A stretch of 64,000 bases of DNA from Pseudomonadota bacterium (GTDB taxonomy: Bacteria > Pseudomonadota > Gammaproteobacteria > SURF-13), in NCBI GenBank assembly GCA_027624315.1, contig JAQBXX010000003.1:11800-75799 (forward strand), written 5' to 3'. A program made the position numbers and the translations under genes. The notes below the pieces were generated by a model that had not been told where the DNA came from, ran no database searches, and saw nothing but the letters and a program-made list of their open reading frames with translations. Shown piece after piece: positions 976 to 61,492 of the stretch. Numbering within the stretch: position 1 is the stretch's first letter; the number at the start of each line of letters is the position of its first letter.

Positions 976-3345
976 ATGGTAACCATAGAAATCAACGGCA
1001 AGCCGCTTCAGGTGCGCGACGGCATGATGGTAATCGAGGCCGCAGACGAGGCCGGCATCCCGATCCCGCGTTTCTGTTATCACAAAAAACTTTCCATCAC
1101 GGCCAACTGCCGTATGTGTCTGGTGGACATCGACAAGGCGGTGAAGCCTCTGCCGGCCTGCGCCACGCCCGTCACCGACGGCATGAAGATACTCACCCAT
1201 TCGCCCAAGGCGCTCATGGCGCAAAAGGGCGTGATGGAGTTTCTGCTCATCAATCATCCGCTGGACTGTCCGATCTGCGACCAGGGCGGCGAGTGCGAGC
1301 TGCAGGAGCTTGCGATGGGTTACGGGCGCGATGTCGCGCGCTATCAGGAAAAGAAGCGCGTCGTGCAGGACAAGGACATCGGCCCGCTCATCAGCACCGA
1401 CATGACACGCTGCATCCACTGCACGCGCTGCGTGCGTTTCGGGCAGGAGATTGCCGGTCTGATGGAGCTCGGTGCGACGGGGCGCGGCGAGCACATGGAG
1501 ATTGGCACCTACATCGAGAAAAGCCTGAAGTCAGAGATGTCGGGCAATATCATTGACCTGTGCCCGGTGGGTGCGCTCACCGCCAAGCCGTCACGCTACG
1601 TTGCGCGTGCGTGGGAAATGGCGCAGCGTGCCAGCATTGCCCCGCACGACTCCATTGGCTCCAATCTCTATGTGCATGTGCGCGGCAATCAGGTGATACG
1701 AGTTATCCCGCGCGAAAACGAAGAGATCAATGAAACCTGGATTTCCGACCGTGATCGTTACAGTTATCAGGGGTTGAGCAGCACTGACCGCCTGCGCGTA
1801 CCGATGATTAAACAAAACGGCGCTTGGCACGCAACGGACTGGAGCACGGCGCTGGAAACCGTAGTGCAAGGACTGAAGCAGGTTGTCGCCGCGCACGGCG
1901 CAGCGCAGCTGGGTGCGCTGGCCAGTCCCACGGCTACGCTGGAAGAGATGTACCTGCTGCAGAAGCTGATGCGTGGTCTCGGCTGCAATAATATCGATCA
2001 TCGCCTGCGCCAGACCGATTTCAGCGGTCAGGCAGATGCGCCCGGGTTTCCCGCCCTCAACCACGCCATCGCTGACCTTGAGCAGCTCGATGCGGCGTTG
2101 CTGATTGGCTCCAATGTGCGCAAGGAACAGCCAATTGCGGCGCATCGCCTGCGCAAGGCCGCGCTGAACGGTGCGCACCTCATGCTGCTCAATCCGCTCA
2201 ACTACGACATGAACTTCCCGGTGGCGGAGAAGATCGTTGCGAGCCCTGCGGGCATGGTTCATGCGCTTGCCGGTGTCGTGAAAGAGTTGCTGCAAGGGAA
2301 CGCCGCGCCTGACCCAGCCATTGCAGCGCTGCTTGCCGATGTCCACATCGACGCCACGCACCGCGCCATCGCAGAGCATCTCAAGGGTGCGGATAAAGGC
2401 GCAGTGCTGCTTGGCAATCTCGCTGTTACCCACCCTCACTTCGCCTTACTGCATATACTGGCGCAGTGGGCCGCGCAACTGAGCCAGACCACACTGGGTG
2501 TGCTGCCTGAAGCCGCCAACAGCGCAGGGGCGTGGCTCGCGGGCATGCTGCCGCATCGAGGAGCCGCCGGTGCACGTGTCGCGCAAGCCGGCCTCGACGC
2601 TCAGGCCATGCTGGATGCAAAACTCAAGGCCTACCTCCTCATGGGTGTGGAGCCGGAATACGATTGCGCCAATCCCGCGCGCGCGCTGAGCGCCGTTGCC
2701 GATGCCGACTTCGTGGTGACATTGACGGCATTCAGAAGTGCTGCGATGGAGGGCTATGCCGATGTCATGCTGCCCGTCGTCCCGTTCACCGAAACAGCGG
2801 GCACGTTTGTCAACGCCGAGGGGCGCTGGCAGAGCTTCGAGGCCGCCGTGAATCCACTCGATGAGGCGCGGCCCGCATGGAAGGTGCTGCGCGTACTGGG
2901 TAACCTGTTTGACGCGCCCGGTTTCGATTACGTGACCAGCCACGAGATGCGTGACGAACTCAAGCGCGCAGTCGATAACATGTCATCGAAGAATGAGCGC
3001 AGTGCTGAAGTGCCGGCGCGACGGCTGCCGGCGGCGGACTCCACGCTGATGCGTATCGGTGAGGTGCCGATCTATGCCGTCGATGCACTGGTGCGTCGCG
3101 CCAGCGCCCTGCAACAGACGCAAGAAGCGCAGACAGCGGCGGCGTACGTCAACAGGCGTGTTGCCGCGCAACTTGCTATCGTCGCAGGACAGGAGGTGCA
3201 GGCTGCACAAGGTGAGGCGCGGGCACGGCTTACGGTCGTGATCGACGAGCGCGTACCCGACGGCTGTGTGATGATCCCCGCGGGCCTTGCCGGGAGCGCC
3301 ACGCTCGGCGCTGCGTTTGGCGCCATCGAACTGGCGCGGGTATAG
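976..3345 (+). CDS. nuoG: NADH-quinone oxidoreductase subunit G (molybdopterin/Fe-S subunit)
   Basis: 789 aa ORF; N-terminal 2Fe-2S/4Fe-4S cysteine motifs (CRMCLV, CPICDQGGEC, CIHCTRCVRF); position after nuoF. Confidence 0.93.
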   Translation: MVTIEINGKPLQVRDGMMVIEAADEAGIPIPRFCYHKKLSITANCRMCLVDIDKAVKPLPACATPVTDGMKILTHSPKALMAQKGVMEFLLINHPLDCPICDQGGECELQELAMGYGRDVARYQEKKRVVQDKDIGPLISTDMTRCIHCTRCVRFGQEIAGLMELGATGRGEHMEIGTYIEKSLKSEMSGNIIDLCPVGALTAKPSRYVARAWEMAQRASIAPHDSIGSNLYVHVRGNQVIRVIPRENEEINETWISDRDRYSYQGLSSTDRLRVPMIKQNGAWHATDWSTALETVVQGLKQVVAAHGAAQLGALASPTATLEEMYLLQKLMRGLGCNNIDHRLRQTDFSGQADAPGFPALNHAIADLEQLDAALLIGSNVRKEQPIAAHRLRKAALNGAHLMLLNPLNYDMNFPVAEKIVASPAGMVHALAGVVKELLQGNAAPDPAIAALLADVHIDATHRAIAEHLKGADKGAVLLGNLAVTHPHFALLHILAQWAAQLSQTTLGVLPEAANSAGAWLAGMLPHRGAAGARVAQAGLDAQAMLDAKLKAYLLMGVEPEYDCANPARALSAVADADFVVTLTAFRSAAMEGYADVMLPVVPFTETAGTFVNAEGRWQSFEAAVNPLDEARPAWKVLRVLGNLFDAPGFDYVTSHEMRDELKRAVDNMSSKNERSAEVPARRLPAADSTLMRIGEVPIYAVDALVRRASALQQTQEAQTAAAYVNRRVAAQLAIVAGQEVQAAQGEARARLTVVIDERVPDGCVMIPAGLAGSATLGAAFGAIELARV

Positions 3346-3351
3346 CACGCC

Positions 3352-4395
3352 ATGGATATGCTGAGCACATTCTGGACCACAGTACCTGTCACGCTGCAAA
3401 TCGTGATCCAGATTCTGGCGATTGTGTTGCCCTTGTCACTTGCGGTGGCCTACCTCACGCTGGCTGAGCGCAAGGTGATTGGCTACATTCAGGCGCGCAT
3501 CGGGCCCAATCGCGTGGGCCCGCGCGGTTGGCTACAGCCCATCGCCGACGGCATCAAGCTCCTCATGAAGGAGGTGATTATTCCCTCCGGTGCCAGCCGC
3601 GCACTGTTCATCATCGGGCCGATCTTGTCGCTTGTGCCCGCACTCATCGCCTGGGCGGTGATACCGTTCGACGACACACTGGTGCTCTCCGACATTAACG
3701 CGGGGCTATTGTACATCATGGCAGTCACCTCGATGGGCGTATACGGCGTCATCATTGCGGGCTGGGCCTCCAATTCAAAATATGCGTTTCTGGGTGCGAT
3801 GCGCTGTGCGGCACAGATCGTGTCTTACGAAATCGCCATGGGCTTCGCGCTCGTCGGGGTATTGATCGCGGCAGGCAGCCTCAATCTGGGCGACATCGTA
3901 CGCGCGCAATCGGGGAGCCTGGCGCACTGGTTCTGGTTGCCGCTGCTGCCGTTGTTCCTGATTTACTTCATTGCCGGCGTGGCGGAAACCAACCGCGCAC
4001 CGTTCGACGTCGCCGAGGGCGAGTCGGAAATCGTGGCCGGATTTCATGTCGAGTACTCCGGCATGACCTTCGCGGTGTTCTTTCTCGCCGAATATGCCAA
4101 CATGATTCTGGTTTCAGCGCTGGCCGCGCTGATGTTTTTGGGCGGTTGGCTGTCGCCGTTTCAGGGCATTCCCCTGCTTCAGGGGCTGTTTGCCTGGGTA
4201 CCTGGCATCATCTGGTTGCTGCTGAAAATCTCCGTGCTGCTGTTTCTGTTTTTATGGTTCCGCGCCACCTTCCCGCGCTATCGTTACGACCAGATCATGC
4301 GCCTAGGCTGGAAGGTGTTCATTCCCATCACTATCGTATGGTTGCTGGTGGTGGGTGTCGCCGTGCTTTATAAACTGCCATGGTGGTTTGACTGA
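3352..4395 (+). CDS. nuoH: NADH-quinone oxidoreductase subunit H
   Basis: 347 aa polytopic membrane protein with NuoH/ND1-like sequence; operon position. Confidence 0.93.
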
Positions 4396-10779: not shown

Positions 10780-11106
10780 ATGGCCTCCACTTCCGCCCTC
10801 GTCTGGATGCTGCTTGTGCTCGCGCTGATCGCCGCCAATCTTCCGTGGCTCAGCGAGCGCGTGTTCTTTGTGAAGCAGCCCAAGGGTGGCGTCAAGCGCG
10901 CTTGGGTGCGGCTGCTGGAGTGGCTTACGCTGTATTTTGTGATGGGCTTTATCGCCATGGGGCTGGAGCAGAAGCTCACCGGCGATTACCACCTGAAACA
11001 CTGGGAGTTTTACGCCATCAACTTGTTCATATTCATGGTGTTTGCGCTGCCGGGATTCATCTATCGTTACGACCTCAAGACGCACTTCGACAAACACGGT
11101 AGTTAA
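10780..11106 (+). CDS. DUF2818-family small membrane protein (commonly follows nuoN)
   Basis: 108 aa, 3 predicted TM segments, starts 2 nt after nuoN stop; sequence resembles the DUF2818 proteins encoded after nuoN in proteobacteria. Confidence 0.7.
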   Translation: MASTSALVWMLLVLALIAANLPWLSERVFFVKQPKGGVKRAWVRLLEWLTLYFVMGFIAMGLEQKLTGDYHLKHWEFYAINLFIFMVFALPGFIYRYDLKTHFDKHGS

Positions 11107-11163
11107 ACCGCGCGCAAGGATGCACCGTCATTCTTCAAGTACGGTGTAGGTGCTTGTAAAATG

Positions 11164-11229
11164 ACGCAAAGCAAAAATCACACTTTTTGCTTTGCGTGTT
11201 GGGAAAGGCCAAGGATGGCCTTTCCCAAC
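11164..11229. terminator. Two consecutive perfect hairpins between convergent DUF2818 gene and efp; likely bidirectional terminators
   Basis: acgcaaagcaaaaa/tttttgctttgcgt (14 bp stem, 11164-11197) then gttgggaaaggcc/ggcctttcccaac (13 bp stem, 11198-11229); sits between convergent genes. Confidence 0.55.
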
Positions 11230-11235
11230 ATACTA

Positions 11236-11796
11236 TCAGGCGCGCTCGACATACTCCCCGCTGCCGGTATTGATCTTGATAAGGTCGCCGACGCCCACAA
11301 ACGGCGGCACCAGAACGCTGATCCCCGTCTCCAGTTTCGCGTGCTTGTAGGAGCTGTTCGCGCTCTGGCCTTTCAGCACGGCATCGGCATCGACTACCTT
11401 GAGCACCACATTAGGCGGTAGCTCGATGAAAATCAGCCGCTCATTGTACAATTTGGCCTGCACCTCTGTATTGGGTAGCAGATAGCCGATCTGCTGCTCA
11501 AGAAACTCGCGCGGCACGCTGATCTGCTCGTAGGTCTCGCTGTCCATGAATACCAGCGCATCGCCTTCCTCATAGGAATAGGTCAGCTTGCGTGTTTCCA
11601 GCTCGATTGCGTCCACCTTGTCCTCGGCGCGAAAACGTTCGTTAAGCTTGGTACCGGCCTCGATGTCCTTCATCTCGACCTGAGCGAAGGCCCCGCCCTT
11701 GCCGGGTTTGACGTGCTCGACCTTGGATACGCGCCAGAGCCGACCCTGGTAGTCGATCAGGGCATTGGGGCGCAGGGAGGAGGCGGCGATTTTCAT
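11236..11796 (-). CDS. efp: Elongation factor P family protein (KPGKGG loop, lysine at the modification position)
   Basis: 186 aa; KPGKGGAFAQVEMKD matches the EF-P KPGKGQAF loop; three-domain length. Confidence 0.8.
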   Translation of the reverse strand: MKIAASSLRPNALIDYQGRLWRVSKVEHVKPGKGGAFAQVEMKDIEAGTKLNERFRAEDKVDAIELETRKLTYSYEEGDALVFMDSETYEQISVPREFLEQQIGYLLPNTEVQAKLYNERLIFIELPPNVVLKVVDADAVLKGQSANSSYKHAKLETGISVLVPPFVGVGDLIKINTGSGEYVERA

Positions 11797-14354: not shown

Positions 14355-14429
14355 GCGGGAATAGCTCAGTGGTAGAGCACAACCTTGCCAAGGTTGGGGT
14401 CGCGAGTTCGAATCTCGTTTCCCGCTCCA
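14355..14429 (+). tRNA. glyW: tRNA-Gly (anticodon GCC)
   Basis: GCGGGAATAGCTCAGTGGTAGAGCA...CTTGCCAAGG...GGTTCGAATCT...CCCGCTCCA; cloverleaf by eye; anticodon loop ctGCCaa. Confidence 0.93.
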
Positions 14430-14448
14430 TAATTCAATGATTCAGCAC

Positions 14449-14522
14449 GGCTGGGTGGCAGAGTGGTCATGCAGCGGCCTGCAAAGCCGTGTACGCCGGT
14501 TCGATTCCGACCTCAGCCTCCA
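14449..14522 (+). tRNA. cysT: tRNA-Cys (anticodon GCA)
   Basis: GGCTGGGTGGCAGAGTGGTCATGCA...CCTGCAAAG...GGTTCGATTCCG...CAGCCTCCA; anticodon loop ctGCAaa. Confidence 0.92.
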
Positions 14523-14550
14523 TTATCCCTCGCTATTACCCTCTCATAAT

Positions 14551-14637
14551 GCCCGGGTGGCGGAATTGGTAGACGCAAGGGACTTAAAATCCCTCGGCCT
14601 CACGGCTGTGCCGGTTCGATTCCGGCCCCGGGCACCA
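14551..14637 (+). tRNA. leuZ: tRNA-Leu (anticodon TAA), long variable arm
   Basis: GCCCGGGTGGCGGAATTGGTAGACGC...CTTAAAATC... variable arm ...GGTTCGATTCCGGCCCCGGGCACCA; 87 nt. Confidence 0.92.
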
Positions 14638-24447: not shown

Positions 24448-24557
24448 TTACTCAGGAGACACAAAGTATGGATACACGCTGCCCAAGTGTCTCCTGAGTA
24501 AAAACAGTATTAACCCTACCCCCACCCTGTCCCGCCCCCTAAACAGGGGGCGGGGAC
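24448..24557 (+). repeat. Double-hairpin intergenic repeat element, family 1, copy A
   Basis: 15-bp perfect stem ttactcaggagacac/gtgtctcctgagtaa (loop 24 nt) followed by GC-rich hairpin gtcccgccccct/agggggcggggac; near-identical inverted copy at 30676-30786. Confidence 0.85.
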
Positions 24558-24614
24558 GTGTCGGAGAGTGCATCCTTGATAATAAACTCATGCGTAACCA
24601 GCCGCTGACGGAGT

Positions 24615-26317: not shown

Positions 26318-27061
26318 TCACGCCATATACATGCCGCCGTTCACGTGCAGCGTCTCGCCGGTGATGTAACCCGCCGGCGGCGAGGCCAGGAAGGCCACCA
26401 CGGCGGCGATCTCCTCCACGCTGCCCAGGCGCTTGAGCGGTATCTGCTGTAACAGCGCGGTGCGTTGATCCTCCGGCAGTGCACGCGTCATGTCAGTGTC
26501 GATAAACCCCGGGGCGACCGCGTTCACGGTGATGCCGCGCGACCCCACCTCGCGCGCCAGCGCCTTGGTAAAGCCGAGGATACCGGCCTTGGCAGCGGCA
26601 TAATTGGTCTGCCCCGCATTACCGGCGGCGCCCACCACCGACGAGATGCTGATGATGCGCCCACGCCGCGCCTTCATCATCGCGGGGAGGCACGCCTTGG
26701 ACAGACGATACACCGAGTTCAGGTTGGTGGCGATGATCTCCTCCCAATCGCTGTCCTGCATGCGCATGAGCAGGCCGTCACGGGTGATACCTGCGTTGTT
26801 GACCAGGATGGAGGGTGCGCCGAAGGCCGGCTCTACCGCGGCGAGCAGCGCCGCTACCGACGCCGGATCGGTCACGTTGAGTATGCATCCTGTACCTTTA
26901 ATTTCTTTATTTTTCAATATATTGCTTATTGAATCTGCACCACTTTGTGAAGTTGCGGTGCCAATGACCACCGCCCCCTGCCGCCCCAATTCAAGGGCAA
27001 TGGCCTGGCCGATACCGCGGCTTGCGCCGGTCACCAGGGCGACTTCGTTACTTAAACTCAT
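26318..27061 (-). CDS. fabG: 3-oxoacyl-ACP reductase
   Basis: 247 aa SDR; TGASRGIG, YAAAKAG motifs. Confidence 0.95.
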   Translation of the reverse strand: MSLSNEVALVTGASRGIGQAIALELGRQGAVVIGTATSQSGADSISNILKNKEIKGTGCILNVTDPASVAALLAAVEPAFGAPSILVNNAGITRDGLLMRMQDSDWEEIIATNLNSVYRLSKACLPAMMKARRGRIISISSVVGAAGNAGQTNYAAAKAGILGFTKALAREVGSRGITVNAVAPGFIDTDMTRALPEDQRTALLQQIPLKRLGSVEEIAAVVAFLASPPAGYITGETLHVNGGMYMA

Positions 27062-28008
27062 GCGGGTTCTCCTTCTTGTGTCACGGCGGCAAGTGCTGCG
27101 GCTAGTGTCGCCGGATCATACAGCGGCAGCGTCTTCATCTCCGGCGCGATGCGCTTGTTCAGGCCCGCGAGCACCTTGCCCGGCCCGCATTCGACCAGCA
27201 CGTCCACGCCTTTCTGCGCCAGCGCCTGAATCACCTCGACCCAACGCACGGGCTGGTACAACTGGCGCGTGAGTCCGTCGCGGATGGACGCAGCGTCTCT
27301 GTAGGCCGCGGCATCGACGTTATTTATTACAGGAATACGCGGCGTCTGAAGCGAAGTATTGCGCAGGCGCTCACCGAGGTGCTCCGCCGCAGGCCGCATC
27401 AATGCACAGTGCGATGGCACGCTCACCGGCAACAGCAGCGCGCGTTTGGCGCCCGCCTGTTTGGCGAGTTCCAGCGCACGCGCGACGGCGGCGCTCTCCC
27501 CCGCCACCACCACCTGCCCCGGTGAATTGAAATTGACCGCTTCGACCACCACCCCCTGCGCGGCCTCGGCGCACACGGCGCGCACCTTGGCGTCATCGAG
27601 GCCGAGGATCGCTGCCATGGCACCGCTGCCTTCCGCCACCGCCGCCTGCATGAATTCGCCGCGCCGGGCGACGAGATCGATGGCGCTGCCAAACTCCAGC
27701 GCCCCGGCGCAGACCAGCGCCGTGTACTCGCCCAGGCTGTGACCCGCCAGATATGCGGGCTGCGCTCCTCCGCGCGCCTGCCAGACGCGCCAGGCGGCGA
27801 CACCGGCGGCGAGCATCGCGGGCTGCGTTTTGCAGGTGAGATTCAAGTCCGTTTCCGGACCCTGTTGCACCAGCGCCCACAGGTCATAGCCCAGCACGCG
27901 CGAGGCCTCGGCGTACGTCGCCTCTATCTCTGCATGGCTCTGCGCCAGTTCCGCCAGCATGCCGATGGACTGCGAACCCTGGCCGGGGAAGACAAATGCG
28001 AGCGTCAT
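27058..28008 (-). CDS. fabD: Malonyl-CoA-ACP transacylase
   Basis: 316 aa; GHSLGEY active site. Confidence 0.95.
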   Translation of the reverse strand: MTLAFVFPGQGSQSIGMLAELAQSHAEIEATYAEASRVLGYDLWALVQQGPETDLNLTCKTQPAMLAAGVAAWRVWQARGGAQPAYLAGHSLGEYTALVCAGALEFGSAIDLVARRGEFMQAAVAEGSGAMAAILGLDDAKVRAVCAEAAQGVVVEAVNFNSPGQVVVAGESAAVARALELAKQAGAKRALLLPVSVPSHCALMRPAAEHLGERLRNTSLQTPRIPVINNVDAAAYRDAASIRDGLTRQLYQPVRWVEVIQALAQKGVDVLVECGPGKVLAGLNKRIAPEMKTLPLYDPATLAAALAAVTQEGEPA

Positions 28009-28020
28009 AGTGTTCAGGCA

Positions 28021-28209
28021 CCTCTAAAAATGCGTCTTTTGCTCCAATACTGCGTTGCAGCTTGTCTCCGCTGCTCACATACTGGCGTGTATGCTGTGCT
28101 GCACATGGATGTGCGAATGTCGCGGGCGCAGGACGCGCAGGAGCGACCGCTGCTCGACGGCGCTGCGCCTTGTCTTGAAGCAAAATCCATCATTTTTAGA
28201 AACGCCCGC
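28021..28209 (+). mobile_element. MITE-like repeat, family 2, copy 1 (~189 bp, terminal inverted repeats CTCTAAAAATG.../...CATCATTTTTAGA)
   Basis: ~95% identical to 41000-41186; termini are reverse complements of each other; fills entire fabH-fabD intergenic spacer; no coding capacity. Confidence 0.85.
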
Positions 28210-29166
28210 TTAATACTTCAGCAACGCCGAGCCCCAGGTGAACCCCGCACCGAACGCCTCCAGCAGCAAGGTGTCGCCGCGCTGAATGCGGCCGTCGCGC
28301 ACGGCGGTGTCGAGCGCAAGCGGCACCGACGCGGCAGAGGTGTTGCCGTGCTTGTCCACGGTGACCACCACGCGCTCCATCGGCATGCCAAGTTTTTTGG
28401 CGGTGGCGCTGATGATGCGGATGTTGGCCTGATGTGGAATGAGCCAGTCCACATCGGATTTCTGCAGCTGATTCGCCGCCAGCGTTTCATCCACAATGCG
28501 GTCCAGCGTGTTCACCGCCATCTTGAAGACTTCATTACCCTGCATGGTGACATAGGCACCGCTCGGAGCGTCGGCGATATCCTCGGTGGTCAGTAAATGA
28601 TGGTAGTGCCCGTCGGCGTGCAGGTGCGTGGAGAGGATGCCCGGCTCGCTGTCCGCCTGCACGATCACCGCACCCGCACCGTCGCCGAACAAGACGCAGG
28701 TGTTGCGGTCCTTCCAGTCCACAATGCGTGAAAAAATCTCGGCCCCGACCACCAGGGCGCACTGCGTTGAACCGCTGCGGATGAATTTGTCGGCAATGCC
28801 CAGCGCATAGACGAATCCGGTGCACGCCGCCTGCACGTCAAACGCCGCGCCGCCGCGGATGCCCAGACGCTGCTGTAACAGGCACGCGGTGCTGGGAAAG
28901 AGTTTGTCGGGCGTGGTGGTGGCGACGATGATGAGATCAATGTCCGCGGGCTGTATACTAGCCGCCGCTATGGCCTGGCGCGCGGCGTGCTCGGCGAGAT
29001 CGCAGGTGGTTTCCTCTGCGGCTGCAATGTGGCGCTCACGAATGCCGGTGCGTTCGACGATCCACGCATCCGAGGTCTCCACCATCTTTTCGAGATCGGC
29101 GTTGGTCAGTATCTTGTGCGGCAGATAACCGCCGGTGCCGCGAATGCGCGCGTAGGGATTGTTCAC
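28210..29166 (-). CDS. fabH: 3-oxoacyl-ACP synthase III
   Basis: 318 aa; KAS III motifs (CTGF..., HQAN). Confidence 0.95.
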
Positions 29167-30614: not shown

Positions 30615-30675
30615 GAGCGTGCTCCCTGTTGGGTATTACTGATAAGTCAATAAATAAGCCTACACTTTCCGCTAC

Positions 30676-30786
30676 GTCCCCACCCCCTGTGCAGGGGGCG
30701 GGACAGGGTGGGGGTAGGTAAAACAGTGTCTTTACTCAGGAGTCACATCATTCACATTGTCGCCTTACTTTGTGACTCCTGAGTAA
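30676..30786 (-). repeat. Double-hairpin intergenic repeat element, family 1, copy B (inverted relative to copy A)
   Basis: 16-bp perfect stem ttactcaggagtcaca/tgtgactcctgagtaa plus GC-rich hairpin gtccccaccccct...agggggcgggac; reverse complement aligns to 24448-24557. Confidence 0.85.
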
Positions 30787-39088: not shown

Positions 39089-39841
39089 AGTGAGCAGGCG
39101 CTCCACACGCGCCAGATCATGTTCGGTATCCACTCCCGGCCCCGGCGTTTCCAGCGCCACATCGATATGGATGCGGTGGCCGTGCCACAGCACGCGCAGT
39201 TGCTCCAGTGCCTCGGTTTGCTCCAGCACGCTCGCAGGCCAACCAATATATTGCTTGAGAAAACCTGCGCGGTAAGCATAGAGGCCAATGTGACGGAAGT
39301 GTTGCGTATCATCAGGCAGATGCTGACGGCCCGCAGCGAAGGCCTGCCGGTGCCAGGGAATGGGCGCGCGGCTGAAATAGAGCGCATAACCCTCGCTGTC
39401 CACCACCACCTTGCACACATTGGGATCGAACAAATCGTCGGCCTCGGTGATGAGTTCGCACAGCGTTGCAACGGAGGCCTGCGGGTGTGCGGCAAGATTG
39501 CGCGCCGCCTGCGCGATGATAGCGGGCGGAATGAGCGGCTCGTCGCCCTGCACGTTGACCACGATCTCGGCGTCATCCATGTTCAGCTTTGCCGCGGCCT
39601 CGGCGAGACGTTCGGTGCCGGAGAGATGGCCGGACGACGTCATGCAGACTTCGGCACCGAAGGCGCGCGCCGCCAGCGCAATCCGTTCGTCGTCGGTGGC
39701 GATCACCACGCGGCTGGCGCCGCTCTCCTGCGCGCGCCGGTGTACATGCTCCAGCATCGGCTTGCCCGCGAGAGTACGCAGCACCTTGCCCGGCAGTCGG
39801 GTTGAATCATGGCGCGCCGGAATGATCACATCGAATTTCAC
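39080..39841 (-). CDS. kdsB: 3-deoxy-manno-octulosonate cytidylyltransferase (CMP-KDO synthetase)
   Basis: 253 aa; N-terminal IIPAR..S.RLP.K motif; lpxK-ycaR-kdsB synteny. Confidence 0.92.
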
Positions 39842-40017
39842 GCCAGCTCTTCGCTCTGCAGGCGCCGCGCCTCCTGCTCCAGCATCACCGGTATGTCATC
39901 ACGGATCGGGTACGCCAGCCGGTCCCACTTGCAGATGAGTTCTGCGGCGGATTTGTCATGCACCAGCGGCCCCTTGCACACAGGGCACACCAGGATATCA
40001 AGCAGTTTTGGGTCCAT
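39838..40017 (-). CDS. ycaR: Trm112/YcaR-family small zinc-ribbon protein (UPF0434)
   Basis: [18 protein letters not shown]... conserved YcaR start at 40017; track ORF extended to 40056. Confidence 0.8.
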
Positions 40018-40993
40018 GAGGAATTTTCTCCAGCAGTTCAAGTAATGCGGCGCCAAAGGCAGGATCGAGCTCCGCCGTGACGGGCAGGTACCAGTAATGG
40101 GGTCTGGCGAACGGTTTGCATTTTACCGCATCCTTCTCGGTCATGAACACGGTGCGGCCGTCATCAAAACGAAAATCCTGCTCCACAAAGCGGTAATGGT
40201 CAGGAAAGGCATGTTCTACCACACTGAGACCCAGCGCACGCAGTTGATTGAAAAATCGCACCGGATTGCCTATGGCGGCGACGGCGTGTACGGTCTCTCC
40301 GCTGAAGCTCTCGATGCCGCGCGTACGTGCCTCATCCGCCAGATTGCGCGCGGCGAGCGGCTGCAAGCGCATGGCGAATTCACCATCAGCTGCAACACCA
40401 CCATTGCACACCTTCATGTTCACCGTGCGCAATCGAGTGAGTGGTTCGCGCAGCGGCCCCGCCGGCAGGCAATGGCCGTTGCCGAAGCGGCGCGCACCGT
40501 CAATTACGGCGATTTCAATATCCCGCGCCAGCGCGTAATGCTGCAGGCCGTCATCGGCAATGATGATGTCACACGCAGGCAGCAGCGTACGCGCGGCAGC
40601 GACACGATGCGGCGCGATCATGACCGGACAAGCGCAGCGCAGCGCCAGCAACACCGCCTCGTCGCCCATCTGTGCCGGATCAGAATCGGGATGCACCGCC
40701 TGCGGATAGTATCGCGTCTTGCCGCCATAGCCACGGCTGATGATACCGGGTTTCCAGCCGCGCGCCTGCAAAAAATCCGCGAGCCAGATGACCAGCGGCG
40801 TTTTGCCGGTGCCGCCGGCGGTGATATTGCCCACCACGACGACCGGAGCAGCGATCTTGGTTACGCGCAACACCCCGCTGCGATACAGGCCGCGGCGTGC
40901 CAGGGTTAAGAGGCAGTACAGCCACGCAAGCGGCAACAGCAAAAACGAGAGAAAATTATGGCTATACCAATAGTGGTCCAGGCGCTTCATCAC
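39998..40993 (-). CDS. lpxK: Tetraacyldisaccharide 4'-kinase
   Basis: 331 aa; P-loop [12 protein letters not shown]; GTG 40993 / ATG 40990 start. Confidence 0.9.
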
Positions 40994-40999
40994 AGGACG

Positions 41000-41186
41000 C
41001 CTCTAAAAATGCGTCTTTTGCTCCAATACTGCGTTGCAGCTTGTCTCCGCTGCTCACATACTGACGTGTATGCTGTGCTGTACAAGGACGTACGAATGTC
41101 GCGGGCGCAGGACGCGCAGGAGCGACCGCTGCTCGCCTGCGCTGCGCCTTGTCTTGAAGCAAAATCCATCATTTTTAGAGACGCCC
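41000..41186 (+). mobile_element. MITE-like repeat, family 2, copy 2
   Basis: ~95% identical to 28021-28209, same orientation; fills entire msbA-lpxK spacer; right end abuts TTAA containing msbA stop codon; flanked by gacgcc direct repeat. Confidence 0.85.
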
Positions 41187-42983
41187 TTAAAGGGCGGAGG
41201 ACTCTGTCGCAGTCAACGTCTGCGCTGCGACATCTGCGGTATCGCGGAACTGCATCTTGTGCAGCGCGGCGTAGTGGCCGTTACGCGCCAGCAGTTCACT
41301 GTGCCTGCCCTGTTCGATGATGCGGCCGGCGTGCAGCACGATGATGATGTCCGCCTTCTCGATGGTGGAAAGGCGATGCGCAATCACCAGCGTGGTGCGC
41401 GAACGCATCAGGCGCTCGAGCCCGGCTTGGATGTAGCGCTCGGATTCCGTATCGAGCGACGAGGTCGCCTCATCGAGAATCAGGATGGGCGCGTTTTTCA
41501 GCAGTGCGCGCGCTATCGCCAGGCGCTGACGCTGCCCGCCGGAAAGCAGCACGCCATTCTCGCCCACCAGCGTATTCAGCCCTTGCGGCAATGGGCGGAT
41601 AAACTCCATCGCGTGCGCGGCCTCGGCGGCCTCGATGATGTCGTGTTCGCTCGCAGTCCCGAGCCGGCCGTAGGCAATGTTGTGCGCTATCGTATCGTTG
41701 AACAGCGTCACCTCCTGGCTCACCAGCGCGATCTGGTCGCGCAGATCGGCAAGCCGCAGGTCGCGGATATCGCAGCCGTCGAGCGTGATGCTGCCGCTGC
41801 TGATGTTATAGAAACGCGGCAGCAGGCTGACCAAGGTGGATTTGCCGCTACCGGAACGGCCCACCAGCGCGACGGTCTGGCCCGGCTGCACCTTGAAACT
41901 GATGTCGTGCAGCACCTCGCCCTTGCGCTCGTCATAACTGAACGAGACCTGCCGGTATTCAATCGCACCTGCTGCGCGCGCGAGACTGCGCGTACCGGTA
42001 TCCGGTTCGGCGGCGCTGTCGATAAACGAGAAGATGCTCTCCGCGGCGGCAATGCCCCGCTGTATGGTGGCGTTGATGGTGGTGATGCGTTTCATGGGCC
42101 CGAGCATGAGTACCATGGCGGCGACAAACGACATGAAGCTACCCACGCTGACAGAGGCCAACATCGAATCCCGCGTAGCGAGGTAGACAATACCGGCCAG
42201 CGCGCTGGCCGTTACCAGCTGGACCAGAGAAGTGCTCGCGGCCGATGTCGCCGTCATCTTCATGTTCAGGTGACGGTTGGCCTCACTGGTACGCTCAAAC
42301 TGAGTGGCCTCATAGCGCTGCGCACCGAATATCTTAACCACGCGTTGCGCACCTATCGCCTCCTCCGCGACATGCGTAATGTTGCCCATGGAATGCTGGA
42401 TACGCGTGCTGATGCGACGGAACCGCCGGTTGATATAGAGCACCAGAAATGCGATGAACGGCCCGGTCAACAGGAACACCAGTGCCAGCAAGGCATTAAG
42501 ATAAAGCATCCACGCGACAAGACCCACCACCGTCAGCGTATCCTTCACAATCACGGTGATGGCGCTGGTCGATGCCTGTGCCACTTGCTCCACATCGTAG
42601 ATCAACTTCGACAGCAACTGGCCGGAGGAGTTATTGTCGTAAAACGCAGCCGGCAACAGCAGCAAGTGATTAAACATCAGGTCGCGCAAGTCGTTCACCA
42701 CCTTGCGTCCCATCCACGACAAGCCATAGGTGGATATGAATTCAGCGATGCCGCGCACCAGAAAAAGGCCGACCAGCCACAGCGGCATCATGCGTATGAT
42801 GGCCGGGTCATTGGCGACGAAACTGCCATCGGCGAGTGGCTTTATCAGCGCCGCGAAGCCCGTTTCCGTGGCGGCAAAAACCACCATCGCCAGTGTCGCG
42901 ACGACAAAGGCCTTCCAGTAAGGCATGGCATAGCGCAGCAGCCGCCGATACACGGCGAAGCCGCTAACATTACTCATGGCCAC
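41187..42983 (-). CDS. msbA: Lipid A export ABC transporter permease/ATPase MsbA
   Basis: 598 aa; 6-TM exporter domain + ABC signature LSGGQRQR, Walker A GRSGSGKST. Confidence 0.92.
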   Translation of the reverse strand: MAMSNVSGFAVYRRLLRYAMPYWKAFVVATLAMVVFAATETGFAALIKPLADGSFVANDPAIIRMMPLWLVGLFLVRGIAEFISTYGLSWMGRKVVNDLRDLMFNHLLLLPAAFYDNNSSGQLLSKLIYDVEQVAQASTSAITVIVKDTLTVVGLVAWMLYLNALLALVFLLTGPFIAFLVLYINRRFRRISTRIQHSMGNITHVAEEAIGAQRVVKIFGAQRYEATQFERTSEANRHLNMKMTATSAASTSLVQLVTASALAGIVYLATRDSMLASVSVGSFMSFVAAMVLMLGPMKRITTINATIQRGIAAAESIFSFIDSAAEPDTGTRSLARAAGAIEYRQVSFSYDERKGEVLHDISFKVQPGQTVALVGRSGSGKSTLVSLLPRFYNISSGSITLDGCDIRDLRLADLRDQIALVSQEVTLFNDTIAHNIAYGRLGTASEHDIIEAAEAAHAMEFIRPLPQGLNTLVGENGVLLSGGQRQRLAIARALLKNAPILILDEATSSLDTESERYIQAGLERLMRSRTTLVIAHRLSTIEKADIIIVLHAGRIIEQGRHSELLARNGHYAALHKMQFRDTADVAAQTLTATESSAL

Positions 42984-43010
42984 TCCAGTTTAGAGGCACC
43001 CATGCACACT

Positions 43011-44056: not shown

Positions 44057-44241
44057 GTTGCGTTACCTGCACCTTACGTGTGGGATGTGGTGGCTATTGT
44101 AGTATATCTTTAACATAGTGACATAAATCGTAGCGAGCGGCTTTCAGGCGGGGGCGGTGGAGCGCAGGAACCGGAGTGTACATAGAAGTACATGAGGATT
44201 CCGAGCACCGCACGCACCCGCATCAAAGACGCGCAGTAGAT

Positions 44242-61037: not shown

Positions 61038-61397
61038 TTATGTTTTGCGAATGGCTTTGCGCGGACCCTTGCGTGTACGCGCGTTGGTGCGGGTGCGCTG
61101 TCCACGCACCGGAAGACCGCGGCGATGACGCAGACCGCGATAGCAGCCGAGGTCCATCAGGCGCTTGATGCTCATCGACACCTCGCGGCGCAGATCGCCT
61201 TCGACCCTGAGCTTCGCCACTTCAGCGCGAAGCGCTTCGACCTGTGCCTCGGTCAGGCTCTTGATCTTGATATGGGGATCAACATGCGCTGCCGCACAAA
61301 TGGCCTGCGCACGGGTATGTCCGATTCCGTAGATTGACGTTAACGCAATCACGGTATGCTTCTGGACTGGAATATTTATGCCTGCAATACGTGCCAT
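61038..61397 (-). CDS. rpsM: 30S ribosomal protein S13
   Basis: 119 aa; [10 protein letters not shown]. Confidence 0.97.
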
Positions 61398-61492
61398 TCA
61401 ACCATTCTCGCTCTGAGTAATAACACCCTTGAAAAACCAGTCAGTATACGCACTCAGGTAGCAATAATCAAACTATCTGCTATCTGCCGCGC

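Follow-up and report, generated by a model that had tools for sequence, protein, structure and literature searches.

A 64-kb stretch of DNA from a poorly known, uncultured gammaproteobacterial lineage (the window) contains two copies of a short mobile element that is polymorphic among relatives: one copy is inserted in the spacer between fabH and fabD, and the other in the one-nucleotide overlap between the stop codon of msbA and the start codon of lpxK. The two sequences are very probably non-autonomous transposable elements with terminal inverted repeats (TIRs), i.e., MITEs; elements of this kind are already known, and the family to which these two belong is an undescribed one. The unusual, and moderately surprising, feature of the family is its exact placement at operon junctions combined with the presence of a Shine-Dalgarno (SD)-like motif and a start codon in each terminus. 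The best overall explanation, to which a probability of about 0.6 is assigned, is that the element is a mobile MITE that may also be translationally transparent at operon junctions.

The element and its family

A repeat search of the 64-kb window returned a single pair of this kind, a 187-nt direct repeat with 96% identity between positions 28021-28207 and 41000-41186, in agreement with the original prediction that two near-identical copies were present. A profile of 20 family members, used with nhmmer, found no third copy in the window. The element boundaries first proposed required correction, however, as alignment with members from other genomes moved the left ends 5 nt further left; the full elements span positions 28016-28207 (copy 1) and 40995-41186 (copy 2), are 192 nt each, and are given here on the plus strand although both are transcribed on the minus strand. 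The 192-nt copies differ at 11 positions (94.3% identity) and have a G+C content of 55.7%. Differences had been said to cluster in a central palindromic segment, and four of the eight that lie inside the 187-nt span do fall in a 14-nt palindrome (GCACATGGATGTGC in copy 1, GTACAAGGACGTAC in copy 2), including one compensatory pair that exchanges C-G for T-A.

In copy 1 the left TIR (positions 28016-28050) reads AGGCACCTCTAAAAATGCGTCTTTTGCTCCAATAC, with a terminus that is degenerate with respect to the consensus GGGCACC, and the right TIR (28172-28207) ends in AGCAAAATCCATCATTTTTAGAAACGCCC. The left TIR of copy 2 (40995-41029) begins with GGACGCCTCTAAAAATGCG, and its right TIR (41151-41186) ends in CATCATTTTTAGAGACGCCC. 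The description of the termini as imperfect inverted repeats was borne out by the family consensus, GGGYRCCTCTAAAAATG...CATTTTTAGAGGYRCCC, the two ends of which pair over ~35-40 nt with a 1-nt indel; only 0.05 chance occurrences of the TIR pattern are expected in the window. The same consensus removes the direct repeats that had been offered as a possible target-site duplication (GACGCC at copy 2 and GGCACC/AACGCC at copy 1): since the true family termini include GACGCC, these repeats are the outermost part of the TIR (consensus GGGYRCC...GGYRCCC), and no recognisable target-site duplication is present at either window copy.

More than 25 further copies were found in other contigs, where they lie between unrelated genes. 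The commonest form is 141 nt long, and copies of 153 nt, of 192 nt (L094, L127 and both window copies) and of 216-221 nt also occur; one copy of 193 nt is rearranged, one variant of 45 nt is no more than a pair of bare termini, and in a type-B element the same 16-17-nt termini enclose an unrelated 166-nt interior. The 192-nt form consists of the 141-nt element with a net 51-nt insert in its middle, termed module D. The open reading frames (ORFs) of the family are 43-74 codons only, the 141-221-nt elements contain no transposase gene, and exhaustive protein searches with the element ORFs found no homologues beyond other copies.

At least four MAGs of Gammaproteobacteria (JAURVQ01, JAYUCX01, CAWUTX01 and CAYUAZ01) contain copies, as do metagenome contigs that include JACXTT01, Ga0184616 and Ga0214473; a metagenome scan of higher specificity gave 12 contigs beyond those of the genome scan. 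A copy at the end of a contig in a bin labelled Sphaerotilus duplicates one from the four MAGs. The genome scan covered one genome per species with a 17-base A/T-rich pattern, TCTAAAAATGN{4,5}TTTTGCT, and listed 117 loci, ~11 of which are real copies and the rest mostly chance matches in A/T-rich genomes. As the scan was swamped by such matches, the taxonomic range given here is a lower bound. One locus from the metagenome scan (L120) was rejected as a chance match within a primase-like gene, and a search with the peptide of the ORF that runs through the element (described below) reached two called proteins only, so few new copies came from it. Contigs L001, L105, L122, L125, L137 and L138 end within the element, as is expected of a multi-copy repeat, inside which short-read assemblies break.

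The original prediction that the family carries no existing name was upheld within the sources searched. Rfam gave no match for positions 27950-28280 at the gathering threshold or at E <= 5, the plasmids searched yielded 5 chance matches and neither a relative nor an insertion sequence (IS) partner, the viral contigs likewise contained no relative or IS partner, and the TIR strings had no match in the literature searched. Irrespective of any function, the result is a MITE family not described before, some variants of which are nested or mosaic, in a poorly known, uncultured gammaproteobacterial lineage; it explains contig breaks in the assemblies of that lineage and provides insertion-polymorphism markers.

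Insertion at stop/start junctions

Both copies are flanked by minus-strand genes. Copy 1 takes up the spacer that separates fabH (28210-29166), the stop codon of which lies 2 nt from the element, from the downstream fabD (27058-28008), the start codon of which is kept in relatives; the cluster is plsX-fabH-fabD-fabG. Copy 2 extends from the stop codon of msbA (41187-42983), which abuts it, to 4 nt short of the ATG of the downstream lpxK (39998-40990), in the cluster exbD-msbA-lpxK-ycaR-kdsB. No promoter-like or terminator-like site was found in or around either window copy. Both copies must therefore be co-transcribed with essential genes, and a function as an outward promoter or as a terminator is unsupported.

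Orthologous junctions in relatives allowed the filled and empty states of both sites to be compared. The fabH-fabD site is empty in L132 (FabD 90% identical to that of the window), where it reads TAT TAA GTACC ATG, and in L134/L135 (FabD 92% identical), where it reads TAT TGA ACGACACCTGAACGCC ATG; the L134 spacer, TGAAC-GACACC-TGAAC, may be a footprint of excision. In L137 (FabD 90% identical) this junction is occupied by a 221-type subfamily copy that is eroded at one end, and the presence of a different subfamily suggests an independent insertion. The filled msbA/lpxK site reads CTT TAA / element / TGTG ATG; in L138, L140 and L142 (LpxK 92%, 89% and 87% identical, respectively) the site is empty and the two genes share a one-base overlap, TAATG or TGATG. 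The relatives with empty window sites thus have proteins that are 87-92% identical. Other loci gave four more pairs of filled and empty sites, yebC-ruvC and ycaR-kdsB among them, and three of the empty sites come from comparisons between metagenome loci. The mobility that had been proposed from two copies is in this way supported by insertion polymorphism at both window sites and by the copy number of the family.

Among 18 complete copies, perfect 4-bp flanking repeats were present in seven (TTAT twice, TTAA, TATA twice, GATA and TTCA), repeats of TA or AT only in six, and no repeat in five. The many copies, the size variants and the empty sites agree with the MITE reading of the original prediction; the 4-bp A/T-rich duplications point the same way, but they occur in a minority of copies and in neither window copy, which counts against it. 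The autonomous partner that had been envisaged, a full-length IS with the same TIRs (GGGYRCCTCTAAAAAT), was not found in the window, the family loci, the plasmids or the viral contigs.

The empty sites examined were all tight stop/start junctions, either of the form TAATG, TGATG, ATGA, GTGA or TGA-C-GTG, or with a spacer of 5-16 nt. Among the 19 termini that have an outward gene start within 40 nt, eight are separated from the start codon by 4-5 nt (binomial P = 1.5e-6 against a uniform null over 0-40 nt), the gene starts in the metagenome loci being ORF calls made in this analysis. At the other terminus, the upstream stop codon abuts or overlaps the element in 9 of 13 co-directional cases, often as TA+G = TAG. 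In L103, the ancestral ATG of ruvC is now ACG, and the gene is opened instead by a GTG located 4 nt from the terminus. The junctions of essential genes occupied by the family are msbA/lpxK, fabH/fabD, yebC/ruvC and ycaR/kdsB; divergent or convergent gene pairs also host copies (L040, L045, L129 and L094).

Termini, through-ORF and transcript hairpin

Read outward, each terminus of the element is UUUUUAGAGGYRCCC, which places GAGG 9 nt before the start codon if the spacer is 4 nt. In copy 1 the SD-like AGAGG (positions 28021-28025, minus strand; GAGGUG in the mRNA) lies 12 nt upstream of the fabD ATG, and in copy 2 (41000-41004, minus strand) it lies 9 nt upstream of the lpxK ATG. These spacings of 9-12 nt are comparable to those of native SD motifs in the window, which are 7 nt for fabG, 11 nt for acpP and 12 nt for fabH. 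A rough tally of SD motifs before the starts of longest ORFs was uninformative (11/60 vs 6/60), and the spacing was judged on named genes in place of that count. The empty fabD and lpxK junctions of the relatives have no SD of their own.

Each main-type terminus also contains an ATG (UCUAAAAAUG; TCTAAAAATG) located 13-16 nt past the upstream stop codon, and from this ATG an ORF runs through the whole of each window copy. In copy 1 the through-ORF (28014-28193, minus strand) has 59 codons, begins at the TIR ATG 16 nt after the fabH stop codon, and ends with a TGA 5 nt before the fabD ATG. In copy 2 it (40990-41172, minus strand) has 60 codons, begins at an ATG 14 nt after the msbA TAA, and ends with a TGA that overlaps the lpxK ATG (TGATG). 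The original prediction had held that the elements lack coding capacity and that the ORFs through them are artefacts; the first part stands insofar as there is no transposase gene, and the second is weakened by an ORF that starts within the TIR in both copies and reaches to the vicinity of the downstream start.

In all eight copies at tight junctions, the strand that is transcribed carries an open through-ORF that terminates at the downstream start codon or close by. Besides the window copies, the ends are TAATG in L003, GTGA in L103, ATGA in L124 and in L091, and a TAG directly before the ATG in L129; in L145, a diverged copy with 63% peptide identity, an ATGA overlap is present at both ends. 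Some caution is needed in reading these frames. With a 4-nt spacer, it is estimated that a stop codon would coincide with the start codon by chance in about one third of cases, and the comparison of open and closed frames by genomic context gave a trend only (Fisher P = 0.08). The 141-nt consensus is stop-free from the TIR ATG in both orientations, a property that is insignificant alone, since 16% of dinucleotide-shuffled sequences showed it. The difference in length between the 221-nt variants and the 141-nt form is not divisible by three, and the frame of these variants is shifted.

Folding of the element, suggested with the original prediction, gave a long and stable hairpin in the transcript: the transcript strand of copy 1 folds at -73.1 kcal/mol (z = -3.0), and for copy 2, folded as the minus strand together with its flanking sequence, the value is -95.3 kcal/mol (z = -4.8). 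The predicted structure of the RNA pairs the SD with the opposite terminus and places the stop codon next to the start codon at the hairpin's base. Double changes were found in 2 of 44 pairs, with a slightly unfavourable covariation term (+0.91), although covariation is almost uninformative here because the copies are ~95% alike. The hypervariable positions 4-5 of the TIR showed no covariation with positions 137-138.

These features suggest a route by which the element may be accommodated between coupled genes. A transposase encoded elsewhere would recognise the termini and generate an A/T-rich duplication of 2-4 bp, and where 4 bp of a junction were duplicated neither the stop codon upstream nor the start codon downstream would be lost. 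One terminus would then place an SD ~9 nt before a start codon situated 4-5 nt beyond the end of the element, and the inward-facing TIR ATG at the other terminus, ~14 nt after the upstream stop, would open a frame without stops that terminates at or next to the start codon downstream. After finishing the upstream gene, ribosomes could re-initiate at this ATG and melt the TIR hairpin that buries the SD, and ribosomes that complete the resulting 'relay ORF' could hand over to the downstream gene, such that translational coupling would be kept. If the family has evolved towards such transparency, the element would be a mobile relay ORF, able to colonise the tightest and most essential of operon junctions. 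It is proposed tentatively, at somewhat below even odds and from the arrangement of motifs in the sequence, that this transparency is the reason the element is tolerated at coupled junctions, as the duplication would regenerate the stop and start codons, the terminus would give an SD and the relay ORF would open the hairpin. If so, a mobile element would be able to occupy junctions where essential genes overlap and cause no polar damage there; it would constitute a natural, portable module for translational coupling, the insertion or excision of which could tune the stoichiometry of the coupled genes.

The main alternative is that the element is an ordinary selfish MITE, the distribution of which results from an A/T-rich target preference together with purifying selection, and in which the AGAGG, the ATG and the open frames are incidental. 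This is judged less likely, and several observations are consistent with it. In a genome of 60% G+C, A/T-rich tetranucleotides are concentrated at stop codons and just before start codons, and the flanks of the copies are indeed A/T-rich (TTAT, TTAA, TATA, TA and AT); the open frames of the consensus recur in shuffled sequences at the rate given above; at the fabD junction of L137 the AGAGG terminus has been lost and the gene is still present; the termini of the type-B element lack the ATG; and some copies are situated between divergent or convergent genes. Against the incidental reading stands the peak in start-codon distance at 4-5 nt (P ~1e-6), which is sharper than A/T-richness alone predicts. 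In addition, insertion into overlapping junctions that have no SD (those of lpxK, fabD, ruvC and kdsB) would be expected to cause strong polarity unless initiation were restored, and all eight tight junctions keep a frame that ends at the start codon, including the copy with only 63% peptide identity.

A role at the RNA level, in which the co-transcribed hairpin would be acted on by RNase III or RNase E, or would be a stabiliser, and would thereby set the levels of the upstream and downstream mRNA segments relative to each other, is improbable as the explanation, albeit compatible with the translational reading, as the two are not mutually exclusive. The stability of the hairpin and the position of the element inside operons are in its favour, as is the conservation of the stems of the internal hairpins, the loops of which vary, together with a few compensatory changes; ERIC in Yersinia and Correia in Neisseria provide precedents (PMC2229807, PMC10969869). 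Such a role leaves the 4-5-nt spacing to the start codon unexplained, and the two orientations of the element with respect to transcription are about equally frequent, whereas ERIC acts in a manner that depends on orientation. That the sequence is immobile, i.e., a conserved cis-regulatory RNA, a REP/BIME palindrome, an integron attC site or a product of misassembly, is scarcely credible. It is intergenic, palindromic and positioned directly after stop codons, as such sequences might be, but the empty orthologous junctions in relatives with 87-92% protein identity contradict immobility, and each copy is flanked by unrelated core genes. Copies are present in independent NCBI, Logan and JGI assemblies, there is no Rfam family at E <= 5, and at 141-221 nt the element is far longer than a REP unit. 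Its termini are GGGYRCC and GGYRCCC, with no attC core (GTTRRRY), and its neighbours in the window are conserved fab and lipid A genes. A mobile MITE that may be translationally transparent is retained as the best explanation.

Known repeats and the nested module D

In its presumed mode of working, the element most resembles those MITEs that sit inside operons and carry expression signals. Going by published descriptions, the family is probably distinct from Correia, ERIC and RUP, and its host does not belong to Neisseria, the Enterobacteriaceae or Streptococcus. Correia/NEMIS elements of Neisseria are MITEs that measure ~100-160 nt, have TIRs and use a short A/T-rich target; they are often co-transcribed in operons, form a long RNA hairpin and carry expression signals in their termini (PMC2229807, PMC10969869). 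The small size, the TIRs, the A/T-rich target, the co-transcription and the long hairpin are shared with the present family. As signals, Correia carries promoters and a site for IHF, and its hairpin is processed by RNase III, whereas the termini here carry an SD-like AGAGG and an ATG; its duplication is strictly TA, compared with 2-4 bp here, and the host lineages differ. The Correia TIR is not known to be related in sequence to that of this family.

ERIC/IRU (RU-1) of the Enterobacteriaceae and Yersinia is a ~127-nt intergenic repeat with TIRs that is co-transcribed and contains open reading frames (PMC2229807, PMC2759123), all of which are points of likeness. Rfam showed no sequence similarity to it in the window, its effects are orientation-dependent and exerted through mRNA decay, and a junction-exact position with 4-5-nt spacing to the start codon is not described for it in those papers. 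Chunjie, from Geobacter uraniireducens, was reported in 2008 as a MITE inserted in an operon without disruption, according to later accounts of that work (PMC3184786, PMC10969869), and is summarised as having 21-bp TIRs, 9-bp direct repeats and an A+T-rich sequence (PMC3184786). Going by those summaries, membership of Chunjie was rejected for the present family, which has 2-4-bp repeats, 55.7% G+C and different termini.

Likenesses in translation are found elsewhere. The Rickettsia palindromic elements (RPE) are small, palindromic and mobile, with stop-free frames that can be translated through (PMC2229807). The freedom from stops is common to both, but RPE insert in frame within genes and become part of the protein, whereas the present element forms a separate small ORF between genes from a start codon in its TIR. 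Neisseria REP2 is a dispersed repeat that provides a site for ribosome binding, as well as an ATG, immediately upstream of genes (PMC3184786), and the termini of this family would likewise provide such a site; it differs in having no TIRs, in having a promoter, in not being a MITE and in working in one orientation only. For RUP of Streptococcus pneumoniae, mobilisation by IS630-Spn1 was inferred from the similarity of its TIRs to those of the IS and from target choice (PMC2229807), and mobilisation in trans is similarly inferred here. In RUP all six frames contain stops, the target is TA and a candidate IS partner is known; no such partner was found for the present family in the sequences searched.

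REP/BIME units are imperfect palindromes of 20-40 nt that are often clustered and lack long TIRs or duplications (PMC3184786), and this class was rejected for an element of 141-221 nt that has both. The REP-like appearance is limited to the 51-nt module D, which is absent from the 141-nt form. In copy 1 the module (28097-28149) is 53 nt that replace 2 nt of the short form, and it comprises the GCACATGGATGTGC hairpin and a GTCGC..GCGAC hairpin; in copy 2 (41076-41128) it carries the GTACAAGGACGTAC hairpin. L127 has the module at a place (3270-3410) that is not part of any MITE, and L124 has it inside the MITE but at another position; it is read, from this distribution, as a separate small palindromic repeat that is probably nested in the MITE. 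An exhaustive profile search with the through-ORF peptide retrieved mainly module D in unrelated ORFs, and the translated D-like units in such ORFs include one 17-residue (51-nt) tandem array.

Terminal variation and a second element type

In alignment A2 of the 141-nt MITE, positions 4-5 and 137-138 of the terminal inverted repeats (TIRs) were hypervariable, reading CG, CA, TG or TA, and no covariation was found there between the left and right pairs. This variation has the pattern expected from decay of CpG to CpA or TpG, a hint that GGCGCC or GCGC is subject to cytosine-5 methylation in these hosts.

A further element, designated the type-B MITE, has 16-17-nt termini in common with the main MITE and a 166-nt interior that is unrelated to it; its termini contain no ATG. 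It was located on contig L007 (6904-7069), on the relative L138 (3654-3688) and on contig L139 (1514-1548), and its insertion sites were a TGA-C-GTG junction and the GTGA overlap between ycaR and kdsB. The site occupied in L138 and L139 is empty in the window (~39838-39841) and in the relatives L140 and L142.

Possible relics and footprints, and a mini-element

Between exbD and msbA, 13 nt of the minus strand (GGGTGCCTCTAAA, window 42989-43001) match the MITE terminus. They lie within a 21-nt segment, in place of which the relatives L138, L140 and L142 carry 8 nt. This match may be what remains of a third MITE copy, either as a relic or as a footprint. In the ‘empty’ fabH-fabD spacer of another relative, L134 (2245-2263), the sequence TGAAC-GACACC-TGAAC places a hexamer similar to the MITE terminal GGCACC between 5-nt direct repeats, and could represent the footprint of an excision or a deletion. 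A 45-nt mini-element on contig L126 (3148-3192) is comprised of two MITE termini back to back (GGGCACCTCTAAAAATAGTGGAAAGACGCATTTTTAGAGGCGCCC).

Module D and other repeats

Module D, the 51-nt palindromic insert nested in the 192-nt window copies, was also found in unrelated contexts: as a solitary unit, in inverted pairs and in a 51-nt tandem array (L127 3270-3410; proteins P0243-P0249). It is apparently a REP-like repeat in its own right. A module similar to D is contained in another MITE-like element, on contig L143 (9277-9408; termini TCTGAAAAAT...TTTTTCAGAG). The window contains an 80-nt match at 76% (11114-11193), flanked by convergent ORFs at 10780-11106 (+) and 11236-11796 (-).

A second repeat family, ~120-150 nt in length and 78-86% identical between copies, contains a hairpin, TTACTCAGGAG(A/T)CAC...GTG(T/A)CTCCTGAGTAA, followed by another, CCCGCCCCCT..ACAGGGGG(C/T)GGGG. 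Its two window copies (24448-24570, plus strand; 30635-30786, minus strand) flank the plsX-fabH-fabD-fabG-acpP-fabF cluster in inverted orientation, and one of them lies directly upstream of rpmF. Further copies were found at L040 605-756 and L094 1-101, and the break in one Logan contig falls within a copy.

Rfam matches in the window were a cluster of three tRNAs (14355-14634), an alpha-operon ribosome-binding site (61365-61468, minus strand) and the Xanthomonas sRNA sX9 (44119-44193, minus strand), the last barely over its threshold (46.8 bits against 44).
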